A DNA stretch of 64,000 nt from Escherichia phage 4MG: the sequence record NC_022968.1; one strand, written 5' to 3'. Shown in pieces: positions 61,639 through 63,043 of the stretch. The position numbers and the translations under genes were made by a program. Every line of letters starts with the position of its first letter. Within the stretch, counting starts at the first letter, position 1. Under the pieces are notes generated by a model that ran no database searches, was not told where the DNA came from, and saw only the letters and a program-made list of their open reading frames with translations.

Positions 61639-61729
61639 AGGAAGATGTCAGACTCGAACTGACACACCCGTTTCGGGGCTACTGTCTCTTTAGCAAAGAG
61701 ATCCCTTACCTGATTAGGGTTAATCTTCC
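61639..61729 (-). tRNA. tRNA-Ser (GCU), 3' CCA not encoded
   Basis: Type II; anticodon arm TCTCT-TTGCTAA-AGAGA; perfect acceptor; 3' end abuts 5' end of upstream tRNA-Ser. Confidence 0.65.
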
Positions 61730-61875
61730 AATTGTTCTTTAATTTCTTTACGAAGATCTGCTTTTTCTTTCGCACGAGTGATAGGGATTGATTGAATTTC
61801 ATCTGCAACACCACAGTTACTACCGTGAATCTTACAGCGTCCAAATACCTTTTTACAACGCAAAAGTTTCTGCAT
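61720..61875 (-). CDS. small Cys-containing basic protein (51 aa) embedded in tRNA array
   Basis: ATG 5 nt after AGGAGAT; stop overlaps 5' end of tRNA-Ser(GCU) by about 10 nt. Confidence 0.3.
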   Translation of the reverse strand: MQKLLRCKKVFGRCKIHGSNCGVADEIQSIPITRAKEKADLRKEIKEQLED

Positions 61876-61889
61876 AATATCTCCTAAAG

Positions 61890-61982
61890 TGGCGGTGGAA
61901 GTAGGATTCGAACCTACGGACCCCGTTTGAAGGGGCCGACACCTTTCCAAGGTGCTGTCTTAAACCGCTCGACCATTCCACC
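61890..61982 (-). tRNA. tRNA-Ser (GGA)
   Basis: 93 nt type II; D-arm GTC-GAGCGGTTTAA-GAC; anticodon loop TTGGAAA; perfect acceptor. Confidence 0.7.
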
Positions 61983-61987
61983 AAAAT

Positions 61988-62063
61988 TGGGGTGACCTGT
62001 GGGTATCGCTCCCACTTCCTCAACGTCACAGGTTGAACATCATCTGATAAATGCTTAGGCCAC
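61988..62063 (-). tRNA. tRNA-His (GUG) with non-canonical T-loop and D-loop
   Basis: 76 nt; 7-bp acceptor; anticodon arm TCAAC-CTGTGAC-GTTGA; C73; T-loop AGCGATA instead of TTCRANY; D-loop lacks GG. Confidence 0.5.
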
Positions 62064-62096
62064 GCATGAGTGCTTTCAAATAAAAACACTCAAACT

Positions 62097-62172
62097 TGGC
62101 AGGAAGATAAGGACTCGAACCCTAACTCCGGAGATCAAAGCCCCGTGTGCTAACCAATTACACCATCCTCCT
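62097..62172 (-). tRNA. tRNA-Gln (UUG)
   Basis: 76 nt; anticodon loop CTTTGAT; 7-bp acceptor. Confidence 0.7.
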
Positions 62173-62177
62173 AAAAC

Positions 62178-62254
62178 TGGCAGGGACCCTGGGATTCGAA
62201 CCCAGAACCTGCGGATTTGGAATCCGCTGCACTAGCCAATTGTGCTAAGTCCCT
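62178..62254 (-). tRNA. tRNA-Trp (CCA)
   Basis: 77 nt; perfect anticodon stem; loop TTCCAAA. Confidence 0.75.
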
Positions 62255-62263
62255 ACAACTTAA

Positions 62264-62333
62264 CGGGGCGACCCTGAATCGAACAGGGAACTACCACTGA
62301 CGAGTGGCCTGTTTACCATTAGCCTATCGCCCC
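62264..62333 (-). ncRNA. tRNA-like element with defective anticodon arm, no encoded CCA
   Basis: Perfect 7-bp acceptor and T-arm, canonical D-arm, but only 16 nt where anticodon arm + variable loop should be (CCACT-CGTC-AGTGG hairpin). Confidence 0.4.
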
Positions 62334-62339
62334 CTTATT

Positions 62340-62417
62340 TGGTACTGTCAACGGGATTCGAACCCGTATTTCTCAGATTGAAAGTCTGATGTCCTAGTCC
62401 AATTAGACGATGACAGC
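62340..62417 (-). tRNA. tRNA-Glu (UUC)
   Basis: 78 nt; perfect anticodon stem; loop CTTTCAA. Confidence 0.7.
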
Positions 62418-62424
62418 ATTTGTT

Positions 62425-62498
62425 TGGAGCGGTTAGAGGGAATCGAACCCTACTCTGCGAGGCTTGGAAGGCCTGCGACACACCTTGTGCTTAACCGC
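62425..62498 (-). tRNA. tRNA-Gly (UCC)
   Basis: 74 nt; perfect acceptor; anticodon loop CTTCCAA with 4-bp stem. Confidence 0.55.
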
Positions 62499-62504
62499 TT
62501 AAAT

Positions 62505-62581
62505 TGGTGGGAGTAGCTGGGATTGAACCAGCGACCTCTCGCTTATCGGGCGAGCGCTCTATCCATCTGAGCTATACTCCC
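62505..62581 (-). tRNA. tRNA-Ile (GAU), C33
   Basis: 77 nt; perfect acceptor and anticodon stems; loop CCGATAA; T-loop TTCAATC. Confidence 0.6.
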
Positions 62582-62587
62582 GTTAAT

Positions 62588-62675
62588 TGGTGGGGCGAGT
62601 AGGACTCGAACCTACGAAGGACGCGATGCCAAGGGATTTACAATCCCGCCCGTTTGCCGCTCCGGGAACCGCCCC
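62588..62675 (-). tRNA. tRNA-Tyr (GUA)
   Basis: 88 nt type II; D-arm CCCG-GAGCGGCAAA-CGGG; anticodon loop TTGTAAA; A73. Confidence 0.75.
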
Positions 62676-62677
62676 AA

Positions 62678-63043
62678 TTAACCTTGTTTGAACTGTACGA
62701 TGTCAGTTGAGAAAGGTTTTGCTACTGGTTTATCAGCACCTTTTCCAGAACCATCATCTACGTTCTTTGTTTCTTCTTCGTTTTCGTTATCTTCATCGAA
62801 GTAGTCAGAAAGCATCTGCTTACCTTCTTCAATAACAAAGCGAGCAATATTCTCACGGATGTTGTCTTTAGTATCCTTGTTCATCATAAGATCACGAAGG
62901 ACCATATGAGCATCAGGGATCATAGCAATCATCTTTGTCTTCAGATCAAGAATATTCTTCTCAAGCTGAATTGCGTTAGACTCCTCTTTTAAAGGACGAC
63001 CCTTACCTCTACGACGCTTGGTAAGTGCTTGTTTTGTTGCCAT
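62678..63043 (-). CDS. small acidic protein with N-terminal AT-hook-like basic motif, embedded in tRNA array
   Basis: ATG 63043 (MATKQALTKRRRGKGRP...); 121 aa; own promoter-like element upstream. Confidence 0.5.
   Translation of the reverse strand: MATKQALTKRRRGKGRPLKEESNAIQLEKNILDLKTKMIAMIPDAHMVLRDLMMNKDTKDNIRENIARFVIEEGKQMLSDYFDEDNENEEETKNVDDGSGKGADKPVAKPFSTDIVQFKQG

Follow-up and report, generated by a model that had tools for sequence, protein, structure and literature searches.

A proposed small terminase gene at the head of a tRNA operon, and a conserved mini-protein gene nested among the tRNA genes, in Escherichia phage 4MG

The small terminase subunits (TerS) of phages PaP3 (PDB 6W7T) and NV1 (7JOQ) are small proteins in which a helix-turn-helix N-terminal domain precedes a helical-hairpin core and the C-terminal tail is flexible. 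In PaP3 (positions 1628..4315 of locus L038) four transfer RNA (tRNA) genes are followed by the gene for the TerS of solved structure and then by those for lysozyme, the large terminase subunit (TerL) and the portal protein. PaP3 thus sets a precedent both for tRNA genes beside TerS and for a lysis gene that parts TerS from TerL. Small open reading frames (ORFs) co-transcribed with tRNA genes are likewise known from the tRNA region of phage T4 and from tyrT-tpr of E. coli. Here we describe two small genes in a stretch of 64,000 nucleotides (the window) from Escherichia phage 4MG (NC_022968.1), a Seunavirus-like phage of the Vequintavirinae. Both ORF-B (121 residues) and ORF-A (51 residues) lie on the minus strand, in the same orientation as the array of tRNA genes with which they are found. 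We propose that ORF-B is probably the TerS of this phage group rather than a regulator of tRNAs, a proposal that rests mainly on gene order and architecture, and that ORF-A is an optional mini-gene of the same transcription unit. Neither ORF is new as a sequence; of modest interest are the proposed TerS assignment and the family of mini-genes nested among tRNAs.

It is with the large terminase and portal module, and not with the tRNA genes, that ORF-B is consistently associated. In a survey of 21 viral contigs together with the reference loci, 19 of which had enough downstream sequence, TerL was found downstream of the ORF-B homologue and on the same strand in all 19. The distance between the two varied with the tRNA genes in between, from about 0 kb with none, through 1.35 kb with two and 2.1 kb with seven, to 3.7-6.7 kb where 11-19 intervene. 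The family is also present outside the Vequintavirinae, always with TerL behind it. In Aeromonas phage vB_AdhM_DL (Plateaulakevirus) the homologue, which matches phrog_3330 with an expectation value (E) of 9e-16 and the ORF-B profile at 97.5% in hhalign, ends at position 5342 of the locus (L032) and TerL starts at 5343; this TerL (phrog_979) and the portal protein behind it (phrog_113) belong to the same families as those of the window. In the phi92-type phages (Stephanstirmvirinae) the order is ORF-B homologue, tiny ORFs, spanins, TerL and portal, with the tRNA array upstream of the ORF-B homologue instead. In the window, the tRNAs, a terminator, a gene for a 474-residue protein and the spanin genes intervene between ORF-B and TerL. 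The features concerned, in the order in which they would be transcribed, are:

63096..63124, minus strand: second, upstream promoter-like site, TTGATA-17 nt-TAAAAT after TG (consensus scan)
63062..63090, minus strand: sigma-70-type promoter with extended -10, ahead of ORF-B and the downstream tRNAs (consensus scan)
62678..63043, minus strand: ORF-B, 121 residues, phrog_3330, proposed small terminase subunit (hidden Markov model, alignment, selection, synteny)
62588..62675, minus strand: tRNA-Tyr(GUA) (ARAGORN)
60115..60132, minus strand: intrinsic terminator, seven G-C pairs then a T-run, end of the tRNA operon (terminator scan)
58640..60064, minus strand: 474-residue protein, phrog_16176 (function unassigned), between the tRNA operon terminator and the spanins
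57952..58643, minus strand: Rz-like i-spanin and o-spanin genes (annotation of the window proteins)
56353..57951, minus strand: large terminase subunit TerL, phrog_979, 4.7 kb downstream of ORF-B on the same strand
54787..56337, minus strand: portal protein, phrog_113 (annotation of the window proteins)

Past the portal gene the same strand carries a protease and then the major capsid protein. Since homologues of ORF-B have 0-19 tRNA genes before TerL, and one of them adjoins TerL directly, the tRNA array is better described as inserted into a packaging operon. An earlier note on this DNA had treated both ORFs as protein genes embedded in the tRNA array, which may regulate tRNA expression or modify tRNA or host translation. 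For ORF-A the nesting is real, but ORF-B is better seen as a packaging gene, and a role for it as a regulator of tRNAs or translation is not borne out by the company that it keeps.

The gene order of two relatives includes further details. In PVP-SE1 the region matching the 474-residue gene is annotated as two separate coding sequences, and in vB_AdhM_DL (5343..8242) TerL is cut into pieces of 132 and 351 residues by an HNH homing-endonuclease gene, all three being annotated as hypothetical only.

These phages are not known to have another small terminase. The curated BASEL genome AlexBoehm (Vequintavirus) has none among its 227 features and labels the ORF-B homologue 'hypothetical', and the same is seen at the start and end of JohannJBalmer, a phi92-like genome of that collection. 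The BASEL authors state that their records open at the small terminase gene or its operon (PMC8594841). The records for these phages begin at the i-spanin gene. In the literature we found no report on the ORF-A family, on the ORF-B family or on the small terminase of these phages. As an alternative TerS we considered rV5 gp069, a homologue of which was not found in the window.

ORF-B itself gives a full-length match to the hidden Markov model (HMM) of phrog_3330 (E 4.7e-47), a family labelled 'unknown function', and was found by tblastn in 230 phage records. Over this region the window shares 94.8% identity with E. coli phage vB_EcoM_LNA4 and 91.8% with Cronobacter phage GAP31, in which the counterparts of ORF-B and ORF-A are GAP31_191 and GAP31_192, both annotated as hypothetical proteins. 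When the window was compared with six relatives, the ratio of nonsynonymous to synonymous substitution rates (dN/dS) was 0.03-0.23 for ORF-B and 0.04-0.15 for ORF-A. All of the 16 substitutions that separate ORF-B from its GAP31 counterpart are at third codon positions and two of them alter a residue (D to E), while in ORF-A all 13 substitutions are synonymous. Because these ratios of 0.03-0.23 go together with PHROG family matches and with annotated coding sequences in relatives, ORF-A and ORF-B are genuine genes under strong purifying selection. The conservation in related genomes on which the earlier note had made both ORFs depend is thus present, in 64 phage records for ORF-A and 230 for ORF-B.

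The basic, AT-hook-like N-terminus noted before for the 121-residue ORF at 62678..63043 is present on the minus-strand protein, in which residues 8-21 are TKRRRGKGRPLKEE. ORF-B was aligned with 32 homologues and, in a wider set, with 17 diverse homologues, in which the G-R-P of the basic arm (residues 15-17) is invariant; in the Vequintavirinae it is followed by LKEESNA. The AlphaFold model, with a mean predicted local distance difference test score (pLDDT) of 71, is a helical hairpin made of helices 19-54 and 60-90, with disordered basic and acidic ends. The C-terminus had been called acidic, and there is an acidic stretch at about residues 82-100, but it is really an acidic disordered linker after which comes a short conserved peptide, KPF(S/T)T(D/E)I. 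Mimicry of the C-terminal tip of the single-stranded DNA-binding protein SSB was considered for this end of ORF-B (TDIIPF against DDDIPF in SSB) and rejected, the motif being neither at the extreme C-terminus nor kept in distant homologues. We propose that the basic arm with its invariant GRP would bind DNA, that the hairpin would make the core of an oligomer and that the conserved peptide beyond the linker would contact the large terminase.

In its small size, and in the hairpin core and flexible C-terminal tail of its predicted fold, ORF-B is similar to PaP3 and NV1 TerS. Seven of the ten best Foldseek matches of ORF-B in the PDB were PaP3 or NV1 small terminase chains (E 1-7, template modelling (TM) scores 0.30-0.41), the NV1 small terminase was among the top four hits when the ORF-B profile was searched against PDB sequences (E 0.3), and hhalign paired residues 36-74 of ORF-B with residues 68-106 of PaP3 TerS, the hairpin, at 43% probability. 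Most matches of a BFVD fold search were to uncharacterised proteins; the few TerS and DUF5681 entries among the matches had E > 2. ORF-B differs from PaP3 and NV1 TerS in being shorter, in showing no significant sequence similarity to them, in having a disordered basic arm in place of the helix-turn-helix domain and in having up to 19 tRNA genes before TerL.

The same arm allows another reading, namely that ORF-B is a small DNA-binding regulator that would control the tRNA, lysis and packaging genes behind it. It could be a nucleoid protein or transcription factor of the AT-hook type, or else a late activator resembling Q. Lambda Q sits upstream of lysis and packaging genes in a similar position. 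The invariant GRP within the basic arm and the early-type sigma-70 promoter ahead of the gene would suit such a protein, and one source calls the homologue of a Salmonella phage a 'putative regulatory protein'. The likeness to the AT-hook (Pfam PF02178) consists of a GRP core among Lys and Arg residues and extends in some homologues to a canonical RGRGRPPK, whereas the window protein has GKGRP rather than RGRP and only one of 32 members touches the Pfam model, weakly (E 0.024). Phage small terminases, too, often begin with a GRPxK-like sequence. The regulator reading would leave these genomes without any small terminase candidate, the weak fold and profile matches are to small terminases and not to regulators, and the vB_AdhM_DL gene adjoins the start of TerL without a gap, as is typical of TerS-TerL pairs. 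We therefore regard a regulator as unlikely.

Several points nevertheless weigh against the assignment of ORF-B as TerS. ORF-B gave no significant match to any Pfam, NCBIfam or annotated PHROG model, those of small terminases included, every link to a known TerS is below significance (Foldseek E >= 1, HMM E 0.3, hhalign 43%), and hairpins of helices are found in many proteins. As the TerL and portal genes of these phages are related, the gene order that they share could have been inherited and not be functional. Late packaging genes are not usually expected to have a sigma-70-type promoter or to be transcribed together with tRNAs, and in the window 4.7 kb of DNA, with a terminator, lie between ORF-B and TerL. 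Finally, the window is 64 kb and another TerS could lie elsewhere in the 4MG genome.

The promoter that the earlier note had assigned to ORF-B was found to hold up well. The site at 63090..63062 reads TTGACA-17 nt-TG-n-TAACAT, matching the consensus at 10 of 12 positions, and its -35 box (TTGAC) and extended -10 box (TGATAA-AT) are invariant in eight Vequintavirinae, rV5 and an Erwinia phage among them; the spacer that separates the boxes has diverged. Invariant boxes around a diverged spacer are, as judged from the sequences, the signature of a working promoter, and the authors of the PVP-SE1 record annotated a promoter at the equivalent position. The second promoter-like site (63124..63096) is kept in seven Seunavirus, Mydovirus-like (KP12) and Erwinia (Henunavirus) relatives and is not present in rV5. 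The tRNA array spans about 63824 to 60179 on the minus strand and comprises 23 tRNA genes called by ARAGORN and three more by Rfam. Since the promoter lies upstream of ORF-B and no terminator was found between ORF-B and the strong one at 60132..60115, past the last tRNA, ORF-B is the first cistron of the tRNA operon that also holds ORF-A. The stop codon of ORF-B is 2 nt from the 5' end of tRNA-Tyr, and from established tRNA processing it is expected that RNase P cleavage at tRNA-Tyr would form the 3' end of the ORF-B message. ORF-B is followed by tRNA-Tyr in Seunavirus, the Mydovirus-like KP12, Henunavirus, Certrevirus and an Acinetobacter phage; in rV5 a tRNA-Arg intervenes between the two.

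Taken together, the explanation that we favour on balance is that of a single minus-strand transcription unit that would begin at the conserved promoter 63090..63062, with ORF-B as TerS coming first, followed by about 20 tRNAs among which ORF-A is nested as an optional mini-gene, and ending at the terminator 60132..60115. The tRNA array, the 474-residue gene and the spanin genes would have come to lie between TerS and TerL in this lineage, and ORF-B, for all its apparent embedding in the array, would have no tRNA function. By analogy with PaP3, tRNA genes beside terminase genes may be a recurring layout.

ORF-A and its immediate surroundings are as follows:

61890..61982, minus strand: tRNA-Ser(GGA), directly upstream of ORF-A (ARAGORN)
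61876..61889, minus strand: 14-nt spacer with the Shine-Dalgarno sequence of ORF-A (read from the sequence)
61720..61875, minus strand: ORF-A, 51 residues, phrog_17355, basic Cys/His mini-protein (HMM, alignment, selection)
61637..61729, minus strand: tRNA-Ser(GCU) (ARAGORN; Rfam 38.8 bits)
61548..61636, minus strand: tRNA-Ser(UGA), adjoining tRNA-Ser(GCU) with zero spacer (ARAGORN)

The protein, MQKLLRCKKVFGRCKIHGSNCGVADEIQSIPITRAKEKADLRKEIKEQLED, is basic and contains Cys (12 Lys/Arg against 8 Asp/Glu; Cys at 7, 14 and 21, His at 17), and its minus-strand gene has a strong Shine-Dalgarno sequence, AGGAG at 61885..61881, 5 nt ahead of an ATG that is itself 14 nt past the CCA end of tRNA-Ser(GGA), all of which agrees with the first description of this ORF. 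The overlap with the 5' end of tRNA-Ser(GCU), put at about 10 nt in that description, is exactly 10 nt, the TAA stop at 61722..61720 being nucleotides 8-10 (UAA) of the tRNA. ORF-A matches the HMM of phrog_17355 over its full length (E 6e-40), again a family labelled 'unknown function', and a profile search of 1.84 billion representative proteins gathered 71 clusters at E <= 0.001. The family consensus is M-x-K-(M/L)-L-R-x-x-K-x-F-G-R-C-x-V-x-G-H-G-x-x-C-E-V-x-x-E-I-Q-...-T-R-x-x-E-K, in which C14 and C21 are invariant and R13, H17, V23, I27 and R34 nearly so. The AlphaFold model (mean pLDDT 84) has a short N-terminal helix, a turn with the Cys and His residues and two further helices.

We would guess at a Cys...His...Cys core that probably binds metal, with a charged helix behind it, and, tentatively and again as a guess, at a small accessory protein that binds nucleic acid or a host factor. 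The core is like that of a CCHC zinc knuckle in being a short basic peptide with ...C-x(2-4)-(G)H-x(3-5)-C..., but the spacing C-X2-C-X4-H-X4-C is not that of ORF-A, most members of the family missing the first Cys, and a fold search with the ORF-A model gave no match. There are further points against such a protein: only three potential metal ligands are conserved, and no structural or sequence relative of known function was found. The PDB held nothing like ORF-A by sequence profile or by fold, and Pfam and NCBIfam scans of the family gave nothing consistent, with one of 44 members matching Pfam zf-CCHC_2 (E 4e-4). T4 Cef, a modifier of suppressor tRNAs, was also considered as a relative, but translated Cef shares no motif with ORF-A and T4 was not among the tblastn matches.

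A tblastn search of 50,697 phage records found ORF-A in 64, which belong to the Vequintavirinae, Lahexavirus, Aquaneticvirus and one Straboviridae phage. In each of these four lineages, which account for all 64 records, a sampled locus has the gene inside a tRNA array and co-oriented with it, and the same is true of the homologues on two metagenomic contigs; a locus search with a subset of the ORF-A alignment gave three loci only. Within the Vequintavirinae the position is always between tRNA-Ser(GGA) and tRNA-Ser(GCU). Because PVP-SE1 has these two tRNA genes 5 nt apart without the ORF, in contrast to SSE-121 and the window, ORF-A behaves as a clean and dispensable insertion, and it is likewise not present in the rV5-like and Certrevirus relatives. 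In about seven metagenomic lineages ORF-A has no tRNA within 2.5-4 kb, and for this reason its enrichment in tRNA arrays must be considered real but not obligatory. A link of ORF-A to tRNA arrays is upheld, but the action on tRNA or translation that had been suggested for it finds no support here, and its dispensability and these lineages speak against such an action. The enrichment could reflect function or co-transfer with tRNA genes. It also weighs against our reading of ORF-A that about half of the sampled lineages have the gene away from any tRNA, and the nesting could be mere tolerance of tRNA regions to insertion.

The stop codon lies at tRNA nucleotides 8-10 not only in the window but also in KP12, FENT2, GAP31, contig L025 and Morganella phage Mm5, in the last of which it lies in an unrelated tRNA-Arg. 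In Erwinia phages ORF-A runs 39 nt into the tRNA, so that the end of the protein is the translated 5' half of the tRNA. The in-tRNA stop looks like an economical use of the conserved U8-purine9-purine10. The ORF-A message would be carved from a pre-tRNA transcript, its ends set by RNase P and by tRNA 3' processing, and RNase P cleavage of a given transcript would be expected to remove the stop codon. In this the gene would resemble the T4 tRNA-region ORFs and tyrT-tpr, each being a short ORF in a tRNA transcription unit that is released by tRNA processing, but unlike them ORF-A represents a widespread conserved family with its stop inside the next tRNA.

It could be argued from this arrangement that the family is functionally wired to pre-tRNA processing, RNase P turning the message into a non-stop messenger RNA. 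Productive synthesis of the protein would then be confined to the time before the precursors are processed, and its target could be the maturation of tRNAs, their protection from host anticodon nucleases or the rescue of ribosomes. We consider this strict form quite improbable. A broader proposal, that ORF-A acts on the tRNA system as a small RNA-binding protein that either serves the maturation or protection of the phage tRNAs or counters host defences that target tRNAs, its synthesis being tied to pre-tRNA processing through the in-tRNA stop, is also doubtful, though less so. In its favour the gene is nested in the arrays of at least five unrelated lineages, although each array is about 2-3% of the genome, and in four of these lineages the stop codon is in a tRNA. 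One homologue is 1.3 kb from genes for RNA ligase 1 and polynucleotide kinase, another is 1.9 kb from a phage transfer-messenger RNA (tmRNA), and the sequence is basic and zinc-knuckle-like, with the single zf-CCHC_2 match already mentioned. Against it, close relatives with the same tRNAs do without ORF-A, seven sampled lineages have no tRNA near the gene, and the protein is unlike T4 Cef or any known RNA-binding fold. An unrelated 42-residue ORF of SSE-121 that ends on the same in-tRNA TAA (…GTG GAA GAT TAA) suggests genome compaction and not regulation.

It is quite possible, if short of probable, that ORF-A is instead a generic small early accessory gene, for example for an inhibitor of a host protein, with no link to tRNAs, and that the spacers of the array are merely transcribed, tolerant of insertion and exchanged between phages. 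The patchy distribution of ORF-A and its clean insertion and deletion fit such a gene, as do its metagenomic neighbours, which are varied small ORFs typical of T4-like accessory regions. Other unrelated small ORFs are found in tRNA spacers as well, including phi92 gp111, the second ORF of SSE-121 and ORFs in the arrays of KP12 and Aeromonas phages. The enrichment of ORF-A in tRNA arrays far above the expectation for random positions and the strong conservation of the family speak against an accessory gene of this kind.

Some further observations concern the neighbours of ORF-A. The 42-residue ORF of SSE-121 (L016, 2662..2790) is inserted between ORF-A and tRNA-Ser(GCU). The 50-residue phi92 gp111, which lies between two tRNA-Ser genes, was examined as a relative of ORF-A and proved unrelated. 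The tmRNA is found at 262..620 of a 180-kb IMG/VR contig (L007), upstream of the ORF-A homologue, and has the tag ADDYAIAMAA; its interest lies in the fact that cleavage by RNase P would leave ORF-A messages without a stop codon. On contig L006 a 147-residue protein with the canonical Fic motif HPFTDGNGRSGR is encoded at 2038..2481, directly upstream of the ORF-A homologue. Together with a T-x-x-x-E pattern in the family, this neighbour raised the idea that ORF-A is a Fic antitoxin, which was rejected as the neighbours in other lineages are unrelated.

The array also contains elements that the tRNA programs did not resolve. The 114-nt gap between tRNA-Gln and tRNA-Ser(GGA) (61983..62096, minus strand) is near-identical in the window, SSE-121 and PVP-SE1 and has an RNA fold z-score of -3.75, with a 5' hairpin and a cloverleaf that carries the anticodon loop CUGUGAC (GUG, His) and an odd T-loop, AGCGAUA. 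Neither ARAGORN nor Rfam made a call for this cloverleaf, and an Erwinia relative has a normal tRNA-His at the equivalent position. The element in the gap is likely to be a tRNA-like stable RNA or a tRNA-His that is non-canonical or in decay. Four further minus-strand stretches of 109-303 nt (60505..60613, 60854..61037, 61286..61458 and 63367..63669) gave no tRNA call, no Rfam match and no convincing ORF; the gaps are also present in GAP31 and may hold other non-canonical tRNAs or small RNAs. At 62264..62333 (minus strand) ARAGORN reports a tRNA with a 2-nt anticodon ('tRNA-???') that scores 38 bits with Rfam; the GAP31 record lists the element as a pseudo 'tRNA-OTHER', and FENT2 has it too.

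The location of a gene inside a tRNA array does not imply a function related to tRNA. If ORF-B is TerS, an annotation gap would be filled in the rV5-like Vequintavirinae and the phi92-like Stephanstirmvirinae, both of them large groups and much studied for phage therapy, and the assignment would bear on the location of packaging sites, on genome start points and on phage engineering. ORF-B would then define a type of TerS with an AT-hook-like arm in place of the helix-turn-helix, and it would follow that the space between two terminase genes can take up a growing tRNA array, from 0 to about 19 genes. ORF-A is a compact case of a protein gene and a tRNA gene that share nucleotides, in which the interplay of translation and RNase P is directly testable.

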